A DNA stretch of 35,432 bases, from IMG/VR virus record IMGVR_UViG_3300037991_001660, positions 1-35,432 of that record, one strand, 5' to 3'. Below, piece after piece: positions 22,979-30,008 of this stretch. The stretch's first letter is position 1, and each line of letters starts with the position of its first letter. Made by a program: the position numbers and the translations under genes. This stretch comes from a virus. Taxonomy: Duplodnaviria; Caudoviricetes. The notes below the pieces were generated by a model. The model saw only the letters and a list, made by a program, of their open reading frames with translations, was not told where the DNA came from and did not search any database.

Positions 22979-23272
22979 TCACTTCTTCTTTCTATGTCTC
23001 TTTGCAAAGTTTCTAGCAGACTCAACACTTCTAAATCCCCAAGCCCTTAATGCTAAAGCCTTGCGCGTTGGTCTACCCTTCTTATCTTTCATTGGGCCTT
23101 TCATTCCAGCAAACCGAGCAGCAAATGAAACCTTGCGACCCATTCTCTTTGAACCAGCCTTAGGTTTATTCTTTACTGGTGGTTTTAAATTAGCCCCCTC
23201 CTTGCGCTTAAAGTAAGCACGACCAGCAGCATTCAAACCACCCTTAGGATTCTGATACTTCTTCGCTGGCAT
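22979..23272 (-). CDS. DUF6321-like basic protein
   Basis: NPKGGLNAAGRAY...NLKPP...SFAARF.GM...ALRAW; likely ATG at 23272. Confidence 0.65.
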   Translation of the reverse strand: MPAKKYQNPKGGLNAAGRAYFKRKEGANLKPPVKNKPKAGSKRMGRKVSFAARFAGMKGPMKDKKGRPTRKALALRAWGFRSVESARNFAKRHRKKK

Positions 23273-23357
23273 AGCCCTCACTCTTCAATGCAGCTTTCAC
23301 CAAAGACATATCATCCTTCGGTGGGTACTTCTCAGGTTTCTTTTTAAAACGTGCCAT
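23244..23357 (-). CDS. 37-aa hypothetical protein (not in ORF track)
   Basis: MARFKKKPEKYPPKDDMSLVKAALKSEGYASEEVSES; first ORF after the late-promoter motif at 23391. Confidence 0.5.
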   Translation of the reverse strand: MARFKKKPEKYPPKDDMSLVKAALKSEGYASEEVSES

Positions 23358-23390
23358 GATCAAACCCTATAACAATAAAAATATTTATGA

Positions 23391-23401
23391 CAACGCACAA
23401 A
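23391..23401 (-). promoter_or_regulatory. Late promoter motif TTTGTGCGTTG (small-ORF/terL operon)
   Basis: Exact 11-mer, intergenic, 34 nt upstream of ATG 23357. Confidence 0.7.
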
Positions 23402-23501
23402 TTACCTTTTTTAGAAATAATGTGAGGGGAAGAGTTTCTCTGTAATAGCTACAGCAACTTTTCCCCCACCCCCTTGTAGCTACTAGCGCATGAGGAAGAG
23501 T

Positions 23502-23879
23502 TTATCCTAGATCAATCGTAACACGAATATCTCCAGCTACTTGCACTTGGCTTCGATCGATAGGCTTGTAGCCAGCCCTGTCTAGCAGATCTTTCGCTGC
23601 TTCAAGCTGGACATATTCGCTCTTGGCTCCCGTGGCTAGCCGCTTAACCGTACCAGCAGCAAGTGTAGCAGCTACTCCAAACTCTTCGTTCATGCGCTGC
23701 ATCAAGTAGCTTTGCACATGAGCAAGCTTCAACGTCTTAGTTGCTGTAACTCTTCCAGACTCGCCAGAGGCATACCCAGCGGCTTCAGCAGCCTGCCCGA
23801 TACTACAGCCTTTTGCTACTAACGTGTCTACTAAGGCAGTCTGCTTTGCAGTCAGTTTCTTAGCTACGGTAATGTTCAT
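23502..23879 (-). CDS. terS: Terminase small subunit
   Basis: HTH LTAKQ...AAEAAGYA...L...HVQ.Y; V.LEAAKDLLDRAGYK; C-terminal beta strand. Confidence 0.8.
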   Translation of the reverse strand: MNITVAKKLTAKQTALVDTLVAKGCSIGQAAEAAGYASGESGRVTATKTLKLAHVQSYLMQRMNEEFGVAATLAAGTVKRLATGAKSEYVQLEAAKDLLDRAGYKPIDRSQVQVAGDIRVTIDLG

Positions 23880-24023
23880 TACTCATTCCTTTTCTATGGA
23901 TGTAATAGATTACTAGCTAACTACTGCGATTGGAGTCAAGATCATCATCACCTTAGCAATGAGGAATGAGTAAACTTTGTTATCGGCTTGGAAGCCCCCC
24001 CTATCATCCCCCCCATCTACGGA

Positions 24024-24360
24024 CTGACTGCAAGTCCTGTCAATCTGTTACGTCACGTCACTTGTGTCTGCATACTACGGTGAATACTACATGTTGTGGT
24101 TTGCCAAGCTACGGAAGTATTGACAGGATAGTCAGCGAGTTCATCGAGCGCACATTGATGTTTGCTCAACTTAGCATTTGGCTCGTACCCATGTTGAACT
24201 AGCAGCTCGGATTGCACCCTTCGACCACTGATCCAAATCATAGGAGGAAAAAGTTCGCAACCCGCTAAAGGGGTGTGCGAACTTCAAGCGGCAAGTGCCG
24301 TTTCCTCTCTATGATATTGGGTGGTACGAAGGGTTGATCCTTCGCAGCTTAGTTAAACAT
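24024..24360 (+). ncRNA. Candidate structured RNA or ssDNA element (three consecutive stem domains)
   Basis: Hand-identified inverted repeats: TCCTGTCAAT/ATTGACAGGA, ACCCTTCG/CGAAGGGT, ATCATAG/CTATGAT, GAGGAAA/TTTCCTC, AAGTTCGCA/TGCGAACTT; wobble pairs are G-U on the + strand. Confidence 0.6.
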
Positions 24361-24371
24361 AGGAGAACCAA

Positions 24372-24839
24372 ATGGCTAAAGTTGAAAACATAAATGTAAC
24401 GCTAGATAAACTAGCTAACTATACTGTAACTACACATAATGATGTAACTGGACAAGTTGCTAACGACTACTTCATCACTGACGTAGCCAGAACATTAGTA
24501 AATGTTCCGATCTACGCAGCTCGAAACAAAAGATCTTACATCGATAAACTACACGCTGAGATGATGGCTTATGTAACTTGTGATAGTGATGGAACAGTTC
24601 TCGAGAACCAGAGCAAAGAGTACTTTAACGCTAAAGATAAGTACGAACGCTTAGCTCCTCGTATCGAGCTTGAAGCTATCGCTTTCGATCACGTTGCTGA
24701 TCAATACAAAGCTTGGTACAAAGACTATACTGGTCAGGACTATGATGAACCCAAGACACCAAGTACAACTCGAAAGCTTAGCAAGCAAGAACAAGCTGCT
24801 ATGAAAGCTATCGAAGCAAGACGAGTAGCTGCCGCATAG
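24372..24839 (+). CDS. Unknown first early protein (155 aa)
   Basis: RBS AGGAGA; biased codons (6/7 Ile ATC, 7/11 Tyr TAC); followed by a terminator. Confidence 0.85.
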   Translation: MAKVENINVTLDKLANYTVTTHNDVTGQVANDYFITDVARTLVNVPIYAARNKRSYIDKLHAEMMAYVTCDSDGTVLENQSKEYFNAKDKYERLAPRIELEAIAFDHVADQYKAWYKDYTGQDYDEPKTPSTTRKLSKQEQAAMKAIEARRVAAA

Positions 24840-24847
24840 TGGCTACT

Positions 24848-24876
24848 TACACCTAAGCAAGTGTATAAACTGCTTA
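24848..24876 (+). other. H-type pseudoknot
   Basis: Stem 1 TACAC(24848-52)/GTGTA(24861-65); stem 2 TAAGCA(24854-59)/TGCTTA(24871-76). Confidence 0.6.
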
Positions 24877-24903
24877 CTAACATATCAACTAAGGAGAACG
24901 CTG

Positions 24904-24928
24904 GGGGTGGCCTTGTGCCGCCCCTTTT
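24904..24928 (+). terminator. Intrinsic terminator
   Basis: GGGGTGGC-CTTGT-GCCGCCCC-TTTT. Confidence 0.75.
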
Positions 24929-24996
24929 GCGCGGTAGCTACGAGGGTGGGCAGGGATATGTTATGCGACATTGCCCAGACTTTGTAAATTTAATGC

Positions 24997-25041
24997 TTGC
25001 AAAGTTTTTTAATTTAAAATAGTATTGCATATACGCAATAC
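24997..25041 (+). promoter_or_regulatory. Sigma70-like promoter with overlapping palindromic operator
   Basis: TTGCAA-17bp-TAGTAT; GTATTGCATATACGCAATAC at 25022-25041. Confidence 0.65.
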
Positions 25042-25060
25042 ATAAACACGGAGAACTATT

Positions 25061-25270
25061 ATGAAAATTAGAACTACTATTAACTCTGACAGTATACCAG
25101 TGACAATGACATTGCCTGTTAGAGATCTCATCGACCTGTCAAACTTTTTTCAAGATCAAGAAATCAAAAACAGATTAGAAAAAACTGAACACTATTTTGT
25201 TAGAGAGTTTGCAAAGCAGCTACAAGTAGAAGCCTTAAAAATAAATGAAATGGTAAGAGGTGTGCAATGA
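25061..25270 (+). CDS. Hypothetical protein
   Basis: RBS GGAGA; ATGA overlap with the next gene. Confidence 0.75.
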   Translation: MKIRTTINSDSIPVTMTLPVRDLIDLSNFFQDQEIKNRLEKTEHYFVREFAKQLQVEALKINEMVRGVQ

Positions 25271-26127
25271 ACATGATGTCAACAATAAATCCTAATAAGG
25301 TCTGGAACTTTCCAGTTGAAATGATGCCAACACCTAATGCAGTCACTGGCAATCCAGAGCCTGACGCATTTCAGGTTGTTCGAACAGATACCAATACTGT
25401 GCTTGGTCATCATGGCTCACGCTACAAACTTGTACCTCATGACGATGTAGTAAACTCAATCATGGATGCAGTAAAAGAATCAAAGATTACTACTGACTAC
25501 AAAGAACCAACTATTAGTGTCTTTGAGAATGGTCGTAAAATGCGTGGTGAAATATTGTTTCCTGATCTTACAATTGAACCACAAGTTGGTGATATTGTTC
25601 AAGCTAGAATAGTATTTACTAACAGCTACGATCAAAGCTGGAGTTTCTATCAGTCATTCGATGCACTGCGTTTGTGGTGTCTCAATGGTTGCACAACACC
25701 TAATGCTGTAGCTCGTAGTAGATACAAGCACACAACATTTCTTAATGTTGATGGCTCTGCTGCAAAGATACAGAAAGGTGCTGAGCATTTCCATACACGC
25801 AAAGATGAATGGCAAGTATGGATGAAGCGCGAAATATCAGATGATTGGGTTGAGTTATTTTTCAAGAAAACAGTAGCTAAAGGTTTTACTAGACAGTCTG
25901 TTGATACTGTAAACAACAAGCAGATGGAAAACCTATTGCGTATCTGGGACAATGAAAAGAAACAACTCGGCAATAATCAATGGGCGTTATACAATTGCCT
26001 TACTTACTGGGCAACGCATACGCAAGATGCTCGGACACCTCATGTCCAACGCCATAATCGTGAGCAAGAGATTGCTAAAGCAATGACATCAAATCATTGG
26101 AAATCTTTAGTTACTAATTCTGTCTGA
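25267..26127 (+). CDS. DUF932/DUF945-like phage/plasmid protein
   Basis: VRTDT..VLG.HGSRYKLV.H, NSYD.S, RLWCLNG, W.LYN.LT.WATH motifs. Confidence 0.8.
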   Translation: MNMMSTINPNKVWNFPVEMMPTPNAVTGNPEPDAFQVVRTDTNTVLGHHGSRYKLVPHDDVVNSIMDAVKESKITTDYKEPTISVFENGRKMRGEILFPDLTIEPQVGDIVQARIVFTNSYDQSWSFYQSFDALRLWCLNGCTTPNAVARSRYKHTTFLNVDGSAAKIQKGAEHFHTRKDEWQVWMKREISDDWVELFFKKTVAKGFTRQSVDTVNNKQMENLLRIWDNEKKQLGNNQWALYNCLTYWATHTQDARTPHVQRHNREQEIAKAMTSNHWKSLVTNSV

Positions 26128-26320
26128 TTGTGATGCAGTCTCCAAACAGACAGACATTCCAACAAGGGTGTACCTTTCCCCCTAATTGGCATGATCAGAG
26201 AGCGTGTGTTGGGAACTCTCACCGAGGGATTATTTAAACTGATCAATTAAATAATTTTGCTAACCAACAAGGGGCGGTTGGTTCGGGAACAGCCCCACTA
26301 AAATAATAATGGAGAACTAA

Positions 26321-26476
26321 ATGGAATACGAAACGTGCAGCCATTGCGATGGCGAAGGATACTTCACAGGTCGTGAAGAATTTACATTCAAAAAGATAAA
26401 CGTGCCTTGCCCTCATTGCTGTGGTCTCGGCTGGAATATGAAAGATCTTGACACTAAGGAGGATCTGGTTGCATAA
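26321..26476 (+). CDS. 51-aa DnaJ-type zinc-finger protein (not in ORF track)
   Basis: RBS GGAGA; two CxxCxGxG motifs (CSHCDGEG, CPHCCGLG). Confidence 0.75.
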   Translation: MEYETCSHCDGEGYFTGREEFTFKKINVPCPHCCGLGWNMKDLDTKEDLVA

Positions 26477-26482
26477 GTGCAA
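26448..26482 (+). promoter_or_regulatory. Putative promoter and operator in front of the Cro-like gene
   Basis: TTGACA at 26448; TTGCATAAGTGCAA palindrome at 26469-26482; ATG at 26485. Confidence 0.55.
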
Positions 26483-26484
26483 TC

Positions 26485-26769
26485 ATGAAGTCGTATCTAC
26501 AATTAGTAAGTGACAAAGCTTACAAAGCAAACATAAAACTAGAAGACGCCTTTGACAAAGCAGGGGCGTGTCATACTACATATTGGAGAACAAAGAATAA
26601 TAAGACTGAATTGAAATATGATACGGCATTGAGGATCTTCAATGCAATCGAAGAGTTATACCAGATACAACAAGGTCGTGAGTATTCCCAACGACTACGA
26701 GAAACTGATCAAAGAGTTAGTCGTAGCTCGATCAGAAGTAGGTTTAAGCCAAGAATTATTAGCCAATAA
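26485..26769 (+). CDS. Cro/XRE-like HTH protein
   Basis: LEDAFDKAG...TTYWR......L.YDTA.RI. Confidence 0.65.
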   Translation: MKSYLQLVSDKAYKANIKLEDAFDKAGACHTTYWRTKNNKTELKYDTALRIFNAIEELYQIQQGREYSQRLRETDQRVSRSSIRSRFKPRIISQ

Positions 26770-26923
26770 AATTGGATGCACTTCTTCGCTTATACACAAA
26801 TGGGAATGCCACAAGAGAATACCCTCTGGATTTATGTTGATATGCTGGCTTGATGCATTGGGATACCAGATAGATGTCACGAAAAAAAAGCAAACGAATA
26901 ACCTGTCTGTCGTGTCAGAATAA
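26642..26923 (+). CDS. XRE-family HTH regulator (start possibly GTG 26678)
   Basis: AR...GLSQELLA.KIGCTSSLIHKWE..KRIPS......W..ALG. Confidence 0.85.
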   Translation: MQSKSYTRYNKVVSIPNDYEKLIKELVVARSEVGLSQELLANKIGCTSSLIHKWECHKRIPSGFMLICWLDALGYQIDVTKKKQTNNLSVVSE

Positions 26924-27188
26924 AGTAGATTATTTTGTAGCTATACTTAAAGACAATCATGAAGCTACTAACGAAAAATGCTGGTTCATTTGCATACATT
27001 GTTATGAGGGAGACAAATGGCAAACCGTAACAAAAACAAAGGAACTTACCACGAAAAGTGGTTCGTCAACTGGCTCAAAGAACAAGGCATCAAAGCAAAA
27101 AGGCAACCCCTCTCGGGCAGCTTGGGAGGCGAGTATTCGGGCGACATCAAACTCGAACTCAACGGACACGAACTGGTGGGAGAAGTAA
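26874..27188 (+). CDS. Putative zinc-ribbon protein (C-terminal half overlaps the nuclease gene)
   Basis: CLSC...CIHC in the N-terminal ~50 aa; fills the gap between the XRE and nuclease genes. Confidence 0.55.
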   Translation: MSRKKSKRITCLSCQNKVDYFVAILKDNHEATNEKCWFICIHCYEGDKWQTVTKTKELTTKSGSSTGSKNKASKQKGNPSRAAWEASIRATSNSNSTDTNWWEK

Positions 27189-27361
27189 AGTACAGAGATA
27201 AGTCTAACTTCCCTAGTCCATTCGCAGTCCTCGAAGGCAGAGACATTGCCTTCTACAAAAGACGGAGGGGAACTCCGCAAACGCTAGTCATAATGAGTGG
27301 CGAAACATTTGAACAACTAATGGAGAATAAAGATGGCAAAGAAAATAAAGACAGCAGTTGA
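27017..27361 (+). CDS. PD-(D/E)xK nuclease, Holliday junction resolvase-like
   Basis: KG..HE, RQPLSG..GG...GDI, GEVKYR. Confidence 0.8.
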   Translation: MANRNKNKGTYHEKWFVNWLKEQGIKAKRQPLSGSLGGEYSGDIKLELNGHELVGEVKYRDKSNFPSPFAVLEGRDIAFYKRRRGTPQTLVIMSGETFEQLMENKDGKENKDSS

Positions 27362-27581
27362 CGCTGCCGTATGGGAAGCAAACGTAGGTCGGGTTGCACA
27401 ATCGCCAACACTACAACGAGAAGTATTACGCAAAGGATACTTCATAGACAGCGAAGCTATTCATGCTACCAGAATCAAGAATGGCGAAGTTGTTGGTGAG
27501 AACTGGCTCAAAGGTAAGAACAAAGAAATACTTATCAGAGACCACGGTCTTACAGAAAAAGACTTTGAAAAATATACTTGA
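27333..27581 (+). CDS. Hypothetical protein
   Basis: 82 aa with GGAG RBS. Confidence 0.7.
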   Translation: MAKKIKTAVDAAVWEANVGRVAQSPTLQREVLRKGYFIDSEAIHATRIKNGEVVGENWLKGKNKEILIRDHGLTEKDFEKYT

Positions 27582-27606
27582 ACACATTGCGTATATGCAA
27601 TAGACT
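27578..27606 (+). promoter_or_regulatory. Sigma70-like promoter with operator in the spacer
   Basis: TTGAAC-17bp-TAGACT; ATTGCGTATATGCAATA at 27586-27602. Confidence 0.65.
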
Positions 27607-27626
27607 TCAAGAAAAAGGAGAACTAA

Positions 27627-28406
27627 ATGGATCGCAGAGGATTTATTGGCGGCTCGGATTGCGTCAAGATTATGCAAGGCGAGTGGCAAGAACTATGGGA
27701 AATCAAAACTGATCGAAGAAAGCCAGATGATTTGTCAGACAATCTTGCAGTGCAGCTAGGCACATTCACTGAAGACTTCAACCTTCAATGGTTTGAAAAA
27801 CAATACCAATGCACACTTGGTAAACATCAATGGGAGATCGAGCAACAGATTGGCAGAGTGCCAGCTCGAGGAACGATTGATGCGGCTTATGGATTAGTGC
27901 CTGTTGAAGCCAAGCACACCAACGCATTCAATTCAATGAATGATATTATCGAACGCTATATGCCACAGATACAATTGTACGCAAAGCTTGCTGATGCAGA
28001 CAGCGCATACTTGTCTGTAATATTTGGTAATAGCAAATGGGAAGCGCGTAATATCAAGTGCAGCAATGAATACTTCAACAAAATGTGGACTGTTGTTTCT
28101 GACTTCTGGTCATACGTTGAAGCTGACAAGCCACCTGAAGATGTCAACGTACCAACAATTAGTCAAAACAATATTGAAGTAGATCAGATGGTGATGAGAG
28201 ATGCAACACAAGATAATCAATTCGTCGATGCGGCAGTTACATATATACAAGGTTATGAACATAACCGAGTATTCGAGAATGCAAAGAAAGACCTCAAAGC
28301 TATGGTCTTGCCCAGCGAACGTGAAGTTTATTGTGATCAATTGTCAGTCAGAAGAGACAAGCGAGGCGCACTAAGAATAGTAATTACTAATAATGTCAAA
28401 AAATAA
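27627..28406 (+). CDS. YqaJ-like viral recombinase / lambda-type exonuclease
   Basis: R.GFIGGSD, LW..KT, G...E, TID, EAKHT, YMPQIQLY, FW..V. Confidence 0.9.
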   Translation: MDRRGFIGGSDCVKIMQGEWQELWEIKTDRRKPDDLSDNLAVQLGTFTEDFNLQWFEKQYQCTLGKHQWEIEQQIGRVPARGTIDAAYGLVPVEAKHTNAFNSMNDIIERYMPQIQLYAKLADADSAYLSVIFGNSKWEARNIKCSNEYFNKMWTVVSDFWSYVEADKPPEDVNVPTISQNNIEVDQMVMRDATQDNQFVDAAVTYIQGYEHNRVFENAKKDLKAMVLPSEREVYCDQLSVRRDKRGALRIVITNNVKK

Positions 28407-28566
28407 AATCATATTTGCAATAACATCAGATGATGTAGTCACAATGTTTAAAGCAATAAAAAGAGAACTTCAAACCAAACGTAAACGCAGAATGGGAGAT
28501 GCTTCAGTAGTTATTGAACTCTGCAAATTTTACGTCAAACATAATAAGGAGAACAACAATGAGTAA
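28393..28566 (+). CDS. 57-aa hypothetical protein, possibly ribbon-helix-helix (not in ORF track)
   Basis: MSKNKIIFAITSDDVVTMFKAIKRELQTKRKRRMGDASVVIELCKFYVKHNKENNNE; fills the exo-annealase gap and overlaps both. Confidence 0.55.
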   Translation: MSKNKIIFAITSDDVVTMFKAIKRELQTKRKRRMGDASVVIELCKFYVKHNKENNNE

Positions 28567-29014
28567 CTTAGAAATATGGAATGAGTTAGCAGATACAGAT
28601 CCTGAGTACATCAAGCCTGTGTCATTTGGTGCTAGATCATTTACAGCTATTGATCCTCAGTATCAGATTAGAAAAATGACTGAACAGTTTGGGCCTATTG
28701 GTGCTGGCTGGGGTTGGGAAAGTACAACCGAAGTTGTGCAAATGTCTAACGGTGACTCAGCAGTGCTAGCTCATGTTACTGTCTGGCATACAGAACGTCA
28801 TTATTCTTTCGGTGCATTCACTGGCTGTCGAAAGTTCTTTGACTCTTCGAAGGGACGCATTGCTGAAGATGCCCCCAAGATGGCAATAACAGATGGGTTA
28901 ACTAAAGCATTATCGCATATTGGCTGTGATGCTAACATCTTCTTAGGTAAGATGGATGGTAATAAATATGCTCAAGATGCTAACAAATCTAAAGAACCAG
29001 TAGGTAGGTGGTAA
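28559..29014 (+). CDS. Rad52/Sak-like single-strand annealing protein
   Basis: IDPQYQI..MTE.FGP.G.GWG...EDAPKMA.TDGL.KA.S.IG...IF.G; RBS AAGGAG before ATG 28559. Confidence 0.75.
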   Translation: MSNLEIWNELADTDPEYIKPVSFGARSFTAIDPQYQIRKMTEQFGPIGAGWGWESTTEVVQMSNGDSAVLAHVTVWHTERHYSFGAFTGCRKFFDSSKGRIAEDAPKMAITDGLTKALSHIGCDANIFLGKMDGNKYAQDANKSKEPVGRW

Positions 29015-29268
29015 TGCTTACTAAAAAAGTAACCAAACTTTGGAAGGGTGAATACCTTTCCATCCGCACCTATGAGCATCAGGCCGCGATCAAAGCGGAC
29101 GGCCTGAGGCTCATTTACGGAGACAAAACCATGATCCTCTCACGACAACAACTTGAGAACCTCAAACCCTCTTCCAAAATTTTTAAATCAAAAACAGGCG
29201 GCAGAGACTACCAATTAATAGATATTAAATTTGCACCCAATGATCCGCGACAGGATCTACTTTTATAA
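29014..29268 (+). CDS. Hypothetical protein
   Basis: TAATG-coupled ORF of 84 aa. Confidence 0.7.
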   Translation: MLTKKVTKLWKGEYLSIRTYEHQAAIKADGLRLIYGDKTMILSRQQLENLKPSSKIFKSKTGGRDYQLIDIKFAPNDPRQDLLL

Positions 29269-29279
29269 GGAGGCCAACA

Positions 29280-29636
29280 ATGGCAGAAGAATACGACAAT
29301 ACAAACTCAGGCGCAGCCTTTCCACCATTCCCAACGCAGACCATGATCTTGCAGGGTAATTTAGATGTAGATTCTAAAGCACACAAAATTGTATGCGTAC
29401 AGAATGTAACTAAAGATGGCAGAAAAGTTATCGAAGTATATTCAAAGATGGCAATACTATTTGAGAATGACAAGAAAGGTAACGAACAAGCACCAGATTA
29501 TTCTGGCCCACTCGATGATAATGATAAGCTACGCATTGCTGGATGGAGAAAGAAAGCTAAAGACAGTGATAAACATTTTATCAGTCTAAAAATATCCGAA
29601 GGTAAAGCCTTGCCAAATGATGTGATTCCATTCTAA
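29280..29636 (+). CDS. DUF736-like single-stranded DNA-binding protein
   Basis: LFEN.K.GNE.APDYSG, IAGW, FISL.IS; SSB-like C-terminal DVIPF. Confidence 0.7.
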   Translation: MAEEYDNTNSGAAFPPFPTQTMILQGNLDVDSKAHKIVCVQNVTKDGRKVIEVYSKMAILFENDKKGNEQAPDYSGPLDDNDKLRIAGWRKKAKDSDKHFISLKISEGKALPNDVIPF

Positions 29637-29704
29637 TGTGGGATCAGTTCTCCGAGGACGCAGAATTATTGCCTATTACTGCTCACACTGTCCTCGTTCA
29701 CCTT

Positions 29705-29734
29705 GGCGCACCTCTTTAGGTGCGTCTTTTTTTT
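29705..29734 (+). terminator. Intrinsic terminator
   Basis: GGCGCACCT-CTTT-AGGTGCGTC followed by T8. Confidence 0.85.
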
Positions 29735-29744
29735 GAGGTATAAA

Positions 29745-30008
29745 ATGACACCACTTGAAAGAATGAAAGCAGATGCAAAGATCTGCAACTCAAAGCTAAA
29801 AACTAATAGCAAAGTTATTCATACACCAGAACCAACAACGCCAAGAGGTATTACAAGAACTCAAGGCAAAGGCTGGCGCAATGACAAACTCTCAGAACAA
29901 GAGATCGGAGATATTAAATACTTCTTAGGCAGAGGCTGGGATATAAGATCAACAGCAGTTATGTGTGGTGTTAGCTACAGCACTGTACAAAAGATTAAAG
30001 CTTCTTAA
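29745..30008 (+). CDS. HTH DNA-binding protein (candidate late regulator)
   Basis: LSEQEI..I...L..GW..RSTA.MCGVSYSTVQKI; GAGG RBS before ATG 29745. Confidence 0.7.
   Translation: MTPLERMKADAKICNSKLKTNSKVIHTPEPTTPRGITRTQGKGWRNDKLSEQEIGDIKYFLGRGWDIRSTAVMCGVSYSTVQKIKAS

Follow-up and report, generated by a model that had tools for sequence, protein, structure and literature searches.

What is the long, almost fully base-paired element in the divergent control region of this marine phage, and which molecule folds there? The window, i.e. the whole stretch of 35,432 nucleotides that was analyzed, is a near-complete marine podovirus-type genome. Its late genes lie on the minus strand and run leftwards from terS (23502–23879; PHROG 2538, E 1.5e-11; Pfam Terminase_2 just below the cut-off), the first gene of the late operon and the constant left neighbor of the element. 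The early arm lies on the plus strand (24372 to 30008). The two window ends gave no in-frame join, hence a small piece may be missing. A first-pass annotation of 24024–24360 had described three abutting stem domains there, and had offered two readings: an RNA (a non-coding RNA or leader), or a folded single strand of DNA recognized by RNA polymerase.

PHROG and Pfam scans assigned a DUF932 protein, two HTH proteins, a RusA-like resolvase, a YqaJ exonuclease, an exonuclease/annealing-type protein and an SSB-like protein to the early arm; a DUF736 match was weak, and ArdC and a DnaT-like domain are present in the early arms of relatives. The same scans of the 58 window ORFs, many of which have no assignment, returned no primase, helicase, polymerase or initiator, and no rolling-circle nicking Rep with its double-strand origin. 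No relaxase or transfer gene was found among these ORFs, nor did an RNA polymerase gene match in the window, where the assignment of two large virion proteins (1,260 and 1,115 aa) is poor or lacking. Among isolates, Pelagibacter phage EXVC031P Hodr (OQ414635) is the closest, with 45% identity in terS and 53% in the capsid protein. DNA similarity to cultured phages was limited to one 30-nt match near 24850. The stretch (24850–24879) is palindromic and lies 3' of the gene-1 stop; its counterparts in Roseobacter phage CRP-6, in unrelated phages and in an RNA contig from a different organism probably reflect a small repeat or a chance match.

A rod that runs through the start of gene 1

Aligning the sequence with its own reverse complement, which is neutral as to strand, revealed a fold-back at 24117–24433 that is the strongest in the window (score 35, next 16). 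The third domain of the first-pass annotation was said to end just before the RBS; the rod instead continues through the RBS, the start codon and ~62 nt of coding sequence (~20 codons). Its mirror arm (24117–24250, minus strand) copies the leader, the RBS and the first ~62 nt of gene 1 imperfectly and in inverted orientation; it is non-coding and has a 4-nt bulge at 24229–24232 in the window alignment. The gene-side arm (24301–24433, minus, i.e. the template strand), delimited by folding and alignment, holds the leader, the RBS AGGAGAAC (24361–24368), the start codon and the first ~20 codons. Between the arms lies a Y-shaped apex (24251–24300, minus) made of a AGTTCGCAA/TGCGAACT stem, a variable tip, a conserved CAAGC junction and a side hairpin. 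The motif pair recurs in 30/97 loci, whose junction letters are 93–100% conserved, and the side hairpin and flanking stem show changes on both sides among relatives. The pairing of RBS-to-ATG with the mirror is seen in 27/30 loci. In the window itself, the rod has 105 Watson-Crick pairs, with indels in 15/141 alignment columns.

All 15 stem pairs listed by the first-pass annotation were found where it had placed them, and RNA folding of 24024–24360 was far above chance on both strands when compared to shuffles (z –6.8 plus, –7.5 minus). The minus strand of 24100–24445 gave a stronger value with DNA folding, z –13.2. The proposed partition did not survive, however. 'Domain II' folds at chance level alone (RNA z –0.12 plus, –1.20 minus) and is seen only when the sequence is cut at 24360; 'domain I' is weak as a fold of its own (RNA z –2.45 plus, –1.73 minus; DNA z –1.53 minus), and its right part is an arm of the long rod. 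In line with the annotation, which did not recognize a known family, covariance-model searches of the window and 20 relatives yielded no Rfam match at the gathering score (best chance matches E 1.8 and 5). No ribozyme matched, and no tRNA or tmRNA was found at the window. An ocean DNA run that is not flagged as a possible source of the record carries 23241–24100 and 24082–24664 with zero differing letters, which argues that the rod region is not an assembly artefact. RNA contigs were present in two of three RNA runs, one of 151 nt at 24337–24487 and two at 24630–24896; such contigs give no strand, start or level.

Gene 1 (24372–24839, plus) encodes a 155-aa protein that is predicted to form a long helical hairpin with a basic tail (model pLDDT 90.5). 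The protein has 190 relatives at E ≤ 0.001 and no PHROG or Pfam family. Structure searches with the model returned no Foldseek match at E ≤ 0.001, a best VIA-align Z of 7.9 (generic hairpins) and a top Atlas score of 0.80. A role as a strong DNA mimic is unsupported, the net charge being mild (mean –2).

Distribution of the fold-back and co-evolution of its arms

Loci were collected via gene 1, three terS queries and the apex motif. The 286 terS loci were narrowed to 235 whose early side spans 900 nt or more, and to 132 after dereplication; a fold-back was counted when it exceeded the best of 102 late-side control stretches. On this basis, 91/132 loci carry a fold-back beyond all controls and 41/132 fail to pass, with scores of at least 30 in 50 loci and arms of at least 400 nt in 10. 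In L035, L042, L070, L090 and L098 the mirror arm copies the whole gene in inverted orientation and stops 23–41 nt past the stop codon, within the terminator in both alignments inspected; five further loci (L168, L249, L250, L323 and L371) resemble these whole-gene mirrors. Many other rods extend 36–62 nt into the ORF, that of Hodr 147 nt. Arms of up to 600 nt are held at one position across terS identities of 42–100%.

Gene-1 relatives were detected by profile search in 101/132 loci, and their presence was not significantly associated with a high rod score (p=0.18). Locus L076 has kept the promoter region with ArdC as its first gene and has no rod. No rod of this kind was found in MEP301 and HTVC034P. 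The apex pattern had no match in 185,579 bacterial and archaeal genomes; a shorter version matched 119 loci in viral contigs, 34 of them with the full junction and all of this family where inspected, the others being unrelated palindromes. The terS probe matched ~1,500 stored IMG/VR stretches, hence the family is common. Among genome contigs, terS matched a few marine MAG contigs and distant terminases, which do not indicate the host.

Several side observations came out of the survey. ArdC anti-restriction proteins are encoded at L076:1880–2773 and, in Hodr, at L100:4074–4958; an HTH protein of Hodr (L100:5932–6459) contains the DnaT-like domain (E 4e-6). In six loci (L097, L099, L083, L095, L034 and L046), terS is separated from the gene-1 relative by a further gene or by a long structured stretch, with no long fold-back scored; these inserts are possible alternative modules. 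Contigs of this phage family (L380–L388) have been binned into marine MAGs of archaea, Gammaproteobacteria, Rhodobacterales and Rhodospirillales, likely as mis-binned phage DNA.

The mirror co-evolves with its own gene. Of 2,135 divergent columns in 43 pairs drawn from 25 loci, 1,488 had each mirror agreeing with its own gene, 251 had equal mirrors and 5 were swapped; this count leans on own-gene alignments, and cross scores agree with it. For example, the mirror of L042 reaches a score of 123 against the L042 gene and of 25 against the gene of L098, while the two genes score 187 against each other. Among 12 close relatives, both sides had changed at 8/115 pairs, and 13 pairs varied one-sidedly to G·T on the minus strand. 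The likeness of mirror and gene is 75–85%, with a strong wobble bias. Changes fell on the three codon positions 136, 165 and 145 times, i.e. without a third-codon excess; substitutions affected all four bases (253/545 at A) and indels were many. A>G and C>T prevail (143 and 90 versus 20 and 8). Among transversion mismatches on the minus strand, G·A outnumber C·T (103 versus 53) and T·T outnumber A·A (72 versus 14); in DNA, G·A and T·T mismatches are stabler than C·T and A·A. A mirror tied to codons in this way raises the question of how its arms stay in step without turning into a perfect, unstable palindrome.

Two other origins of the inverted copy were considered and rejected. The mirror is not a second ORF, its longest stop-free stretch being 47–75 codons with many indels; nor is it the template repeat of a diversity-generating retroelement (DGR), as changes are not limited to adenines and no reverse transcriptase matched. 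We also noted that the L098 mirror arm is missing blocks of mostly 6 nt relative to the gene, at fairly regular intervals, which would give periodic bulges on the template side.

The folding strand and the signals around it

Wobble pairs had been thought to favor the plus strand. They favor the minus strand instead: mismatches read on the plus strand are A·C rather than G·T by 6 to 1 in the window and by 332 to 49 in 43 dereplicated loci (expected share 0.59; 35 loci for, 2 against, 6 tied), a set from which 7 of 77 loci with doubtful first-gene calls had been removed before dereplication. In a larger set from the window's clade the ratio was 582:90 (59 loci); in the Hodr/Pelagibacter clade the bias was weak (96:67; 20 loci for, 7 against). 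The minus strand also folded better than the plus strand beyond shuffles in 82/97 loci with DNA parameters and in 72/97 with RNA parameters. Since the loci share kinship, such counts are not independent events and p-values overstate the significance.

Loop types point the same way. Hairpins of at least four pairs closed by a GNA triloop numbered 53 on the minus strand (null 14.2, maximum 25 in 30 shuffles) versus 14 on the plus strand (null 11.0), and those with a tandem G·A 22 (null 1.1) versus 1 (null 0.6). CTTG loops on the minus strand numbered 18 (null 0.9), and neither GNRA nor UNCG loops were enriched on either strand. GNA loops of the Hodr clade still favor the minus strand (16:4). GCGNAGC mini-hairpins are described as DNA-specific in their stability, melting at 70–76°C as DNA and at 39°C as a related RNA, and as occurring at phage single-stranded DNA origins and at G4, RSF1010 and N4 sites (PMC13037366). 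The element of the window has no GNA loop of its own on the minus strand, hence its strand call relies on the 6:1 mismatches together with the family evidence. Collectively, these results suggest that the folding molecule is likely the minus (template) DNA strand. Thus, one of the two readings of the first-pass annotation, a folded single strand read by RNA polymerase, stands after correction of its strand and extent; the other, a non-coding RNA or leader, is disfavored by the template-strand mismatches and the DNA-type loops.

The annotation had further relied on a TTGACA inside the stem. On the plus strand, this hexamer has no conserved –10 in 48 loci; the inverted, minus-strand TTGACA is part of an ordinary-looking leftward terS promoter. 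This predicted sigma70-type late promoter (24014–24043, minus) comprises TTGACA at 24043–24038 and a –10-like TAGATG at 24019–24014, with a spacer of 18. Such leftward sites scored better than shuffles (7.18 versus 6.30, n=50) and served as a positive control. With a spacer of 18–19 nt and usually no T at –7, the promoter may need an activator. Directly behind its –10, the minus strand carries a double G-tract (23995–24014; C7-TATCAT-C7 as read on plus), present in 88/132 loci and in 81/92 of the window's clade. The minus-strand TTGACA is mostly 29–32 nt from this tract, with a TG-C-TA preference behind (81 loci). The tract could favor an R-loop primer, a G-quadruplex or a packaging site, and there is a mild excess of contig ends in its vicinity. 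Further left, at 23879–23973, the terS RBS pairs ~80 nt upstream in the predicted late leader through a perfect 12-bp inverted repeat (z ~–2.5); similar hairpins are visible in several relatives, and the repeat is a possible translational brake on terS.

The rest of 'domain I' (24044–24125) contains an operator-like ACGTCAC (24050–24056) and an inverted TTGACA (24120–24125) without a –10, and folds weakly. Spacings from GTCAA to TTGAC cluster near 45, 55, 66, 76 and 88 nt, in steps of roughly one helical turn, which suits sites on duplex DNA; we therefore regard this segment as likely protein sites on duplex DNA rather than a stem. Palindromes of the TGACGTNNCGTCA type lie between both TTGACA sites (24044–24060 and in relatives), often twice, and are a candidate operator for one of the HTH proteins encoded at 26485–26923.

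We found no rightward promoter upstream of the mirror. In a consensus search with our own crude weighting, a sigma70-like site scoring at least 8 was found upstream of gene 1 in 0/85 loci, versus 14 downstream. A terminator-like hairpin with a T-run (24903–24928, plus) closes gene 1 as its own unit, and a terminator-like site follows gene 1 in 46/85 loci. The rest of the early arm has a predicted ordinary promoter, TTGCAA-17-TAGTAT (24997–25025; with its palindrome 24997–25041, plus); the perfect 20-bp palindrome (25022–25041) overlaps the –10 of this predicted main early operon promoter. Given the lack of a strong upstream site, the terminator of its own and the separate next promoter, gene 1 appears to stand alone as a unit that has no duplex promoter, and it is not necessarily 'early'.

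Nor does the fold rebuild an ordinary promoter: TAnnnT at a spacer of 15–19 was present in 0/30 mirrors, and promoter scores of the mirrors equaled those of shuffles (6.20 versus 6.16, n=67), with 7 mirrors versus 1 gene side reaching 7.5 under the same crude weighting. On the mirror, a paired TTGCGA (4/6 of the –35 box) is invariant in 30/97 loci, which were those chosen for the apex motif. Counting from TTGCGA, the paired fraction is 0.78 at positions 12–24, 0.41 at 26–38 and 0.70 at 39–51, and is lowest in the middle in 26/30 loci; the 'bubble' of the window itself is a one-sided 4-nt bulge. The three-way junction falls inside the would-be promoter spacer. At the predicted 5' end of the transcript, a small leader hairpin (24327–24344, plus), whose core lies 35–44 nt before the ATG in 22/30 loci, forms in a short transcript; the overall transcript fold is weak (z –1.56).

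Possible functions and known single-strand elements

The reading that we prefer, to which we give an even chance, is that the element is a single-strand-activated transcription unit that works like Frpo/ssi. Once without its partner, the minus strand would fold back, making the start of gene 1 double-stranded again, and host RNA polymerase would then transcribe this gene, which shows no ordinary duplex promoter. The polymerase would bind beneath the apex, at the paired TTGCGA, and initiate 26–38 nt on, in the zone of weak pairing; –10 to +3 would fall in this zone, pre-melting would replace the –10 box, and +1 would lie near 24324. Transcription of a single-stranded template is described for the N4 virion RNA polymerase as leaving RNA:DNA hybrids unless the RNA is displaced (PMC4496689). 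A mirror over the RBS or the whole gene could act as a surrogate non-template strand, freeing the RNA from the template for translation, and the bulges and the G·T wobbles, which are A·C when read on the opposite strand, might keep the fold off the mRNA strand and off duplex DNA. Candidate sources of the single strand are 5'–3' resection from a nearby end and strand-displacement replication.

A broader proposal, which we hold more tentatively and at somewhat below even chance, is that the control region passes through a programmed single-stranded state and houses a 'self-duplexing gene', in which a co-evolving shadow strand makes one DNA strand a complete transcription unit. If so, the shadow strand, up to a whole gene in length, would supply the start bubble, the non-template strand and the terminator, and resection or strand displacement would turn on gene 1 as a sensor-output.

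Instead of driving a gene, the folded minus strand might prime plus-strand synthesis through host RNA polymerase, primase or PriA, with gene-1 expression secondary. We consider such a single-strand origin unlikely as the main function; it can coexist with the transcription unit, as Frpo does both jobs. It draws on the same strand bias and loops, on the conserved CAAGC junction, and on the 58 ORFs among which no primase, helicase, polymerase or initiator was found; the rod would also be the part of the minus strand displaced last, reading from the G-tract promoter, and sso/ssi elements are described as relying on host enzymes only (PMC5714925). Nevertheless, an origin needs neither a mirrored RBS and codons nor an arm ending at a terminator. 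The first gene of L076 is ArdC and its rod is absent even though the promoter region is retained, and no rolling-circle nicking protein was found among the ORFs of the window, whose ends do not join in frame. A decidedly unlikely alternative has a genome end near terS, where 5'–3' resection would expose a minus-strand 3' tail; folding back on itself, this tail would protect the end and serve as a primer for a polymerase. Extension would refresh the mirror from the gene and so explain the concerted evolution directly, and the Y-shaped tip, the phage-encoded YqaJ exonuclease and annealing-type proteins fit as well. Contig ends are somewhat commoner within 250 nt upstream of terS (24, plus 4 in the gene start, versus 5–13 per bin; duplicates kept), but they are scattered with no single base, and G-tracts and conserved sequence break assemblies anyway. 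Moreover, fresh copying predicts near-perfect mirrors, not the observed 75–85% likeness with its wobble bias.

An RNA device seems to us quite unlikely, be it a leader on the plus strand in which RBS and AUG are buried so that translation is timed or released by RNase III, or an antisense RNA rod of the minus strand. It would account for the RBS and AUG lying within the rod in 27/30 loci and for the strong fold of the plus strand (z –8.6), and G·U pairs would suit a minus-strand RNA equally. The plus strand, however, bears A·C and not G·U, a rightward promoter upstream of the mirror was not found, the loops are GNA and CTTG and not GNRA or UNCG, and Rfam and ribozyme searches gave no match. 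It is most improbable, finally, that the rod is a functionless inverted duplication whose likeness is kept by arm-to-arm gene conversion and whose A·C excess comes from strand-biased mutation. The prevalence of A>G and C>T would fit deamination of an exposed strand, and arm length is highly variable. Yet the transversions, too, favor the stabler DNA mismatches on the minus strand, apex, spacing and loops are conserved, and up to 600 nt are kept at one position across terS identities of 42–100%.

The single-strand transcription unit has its nearest parallels in conjugative plasmids, whose DNA arrives as one strand and for which single-strand promoters are documented (PMC11541004, PMC12672017). 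As in Frpo1/2 of F, ssi1–3 of ColIb-P9/pESBL (class 1) and class 2–3 single-stranded DNA promoters, a long bulged rod of the template strand lies directly upstream of a gene, is predicted to be active only as single-stranded DNA, and has leading-region-type neighbors (ArdC, DUF932). The plasmid elements, as described, rebuild –35 and –10 in the stem and sit on the conjugatively transferred strand, whereas the phage rod rebuilds no –10 and belongs to a tailed double-stranded DNA phage in which no relaxase or transfer gene was found. The mirroring of an RBS and of codons, in the extreme of a whole gene, also sets the phage arm apart from the plasmid systems as described in these papers. As both a rebuilt –10 and a conjugatively transferred strand are lacking, we do not file the phage element as a member of Frpo/ssi.

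The sso of pT181-type plasmids, the ssi of phiX174, the G4 origin and RSF1010 ssiA likewise combine folded single-stranded DNA, GNA mini-hairpins and host enzymes (PMC5714925, PMC13037366), and share a strand-specific imperfect hairpin and a replicon without its own primase. These origins are not described as gene mirrors in the cited accounts, and no rolling-circle initiator was found in the window. The early promoters of N4, also a tailed double-stranded DNA phage, are template-strand DNA hairpins with a GNA loop whose RNA must be displaced; they are described as hairpins of a few bp, extruded from supercoiled DNA and read by a virion polymerase (PMC4496689). By contrast, the phage rod is imperfect and 130–600 bp long, and no RNA polymerase gene was found in the window. 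Obelisk and HDV RNAs are rods that enclose an ORF, and the longest relatives here are similar, with a rod of ~1.1–1.4 kb and one ORF for a helical protein. We rejected an RNA of this type, given that the element is fixed in a DNA phage genome, has DNA-type loops and matches no ribozyme.

Neither a DNA nor an RNA polymerase was found in related pelagiphages, whose replication the published account describes only as host-dependent (PMC8477408). A search of the literature, with most subscription papers outside its scope, returned no report of a gene-mirroring fold-back in tailed phages or on Hodr, and the Hodr record (OQ414635) annotates only an RBS at the position of the rod. A strand-specific DNA fold this large in tailed double-stranded DNA phages would imply an unrecognized single-stranded stage at entry or replication. 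Hodr has the same order of terS, rod and short helical gene as the window; unlike the window, it is AT-rich, is without the AGTTCGCAA apex, and shows few mismatches and a weak strand bias. As a cultured member, grown on Pelagibacter HTCC1062, that carries the device, Hodr makes it testable.
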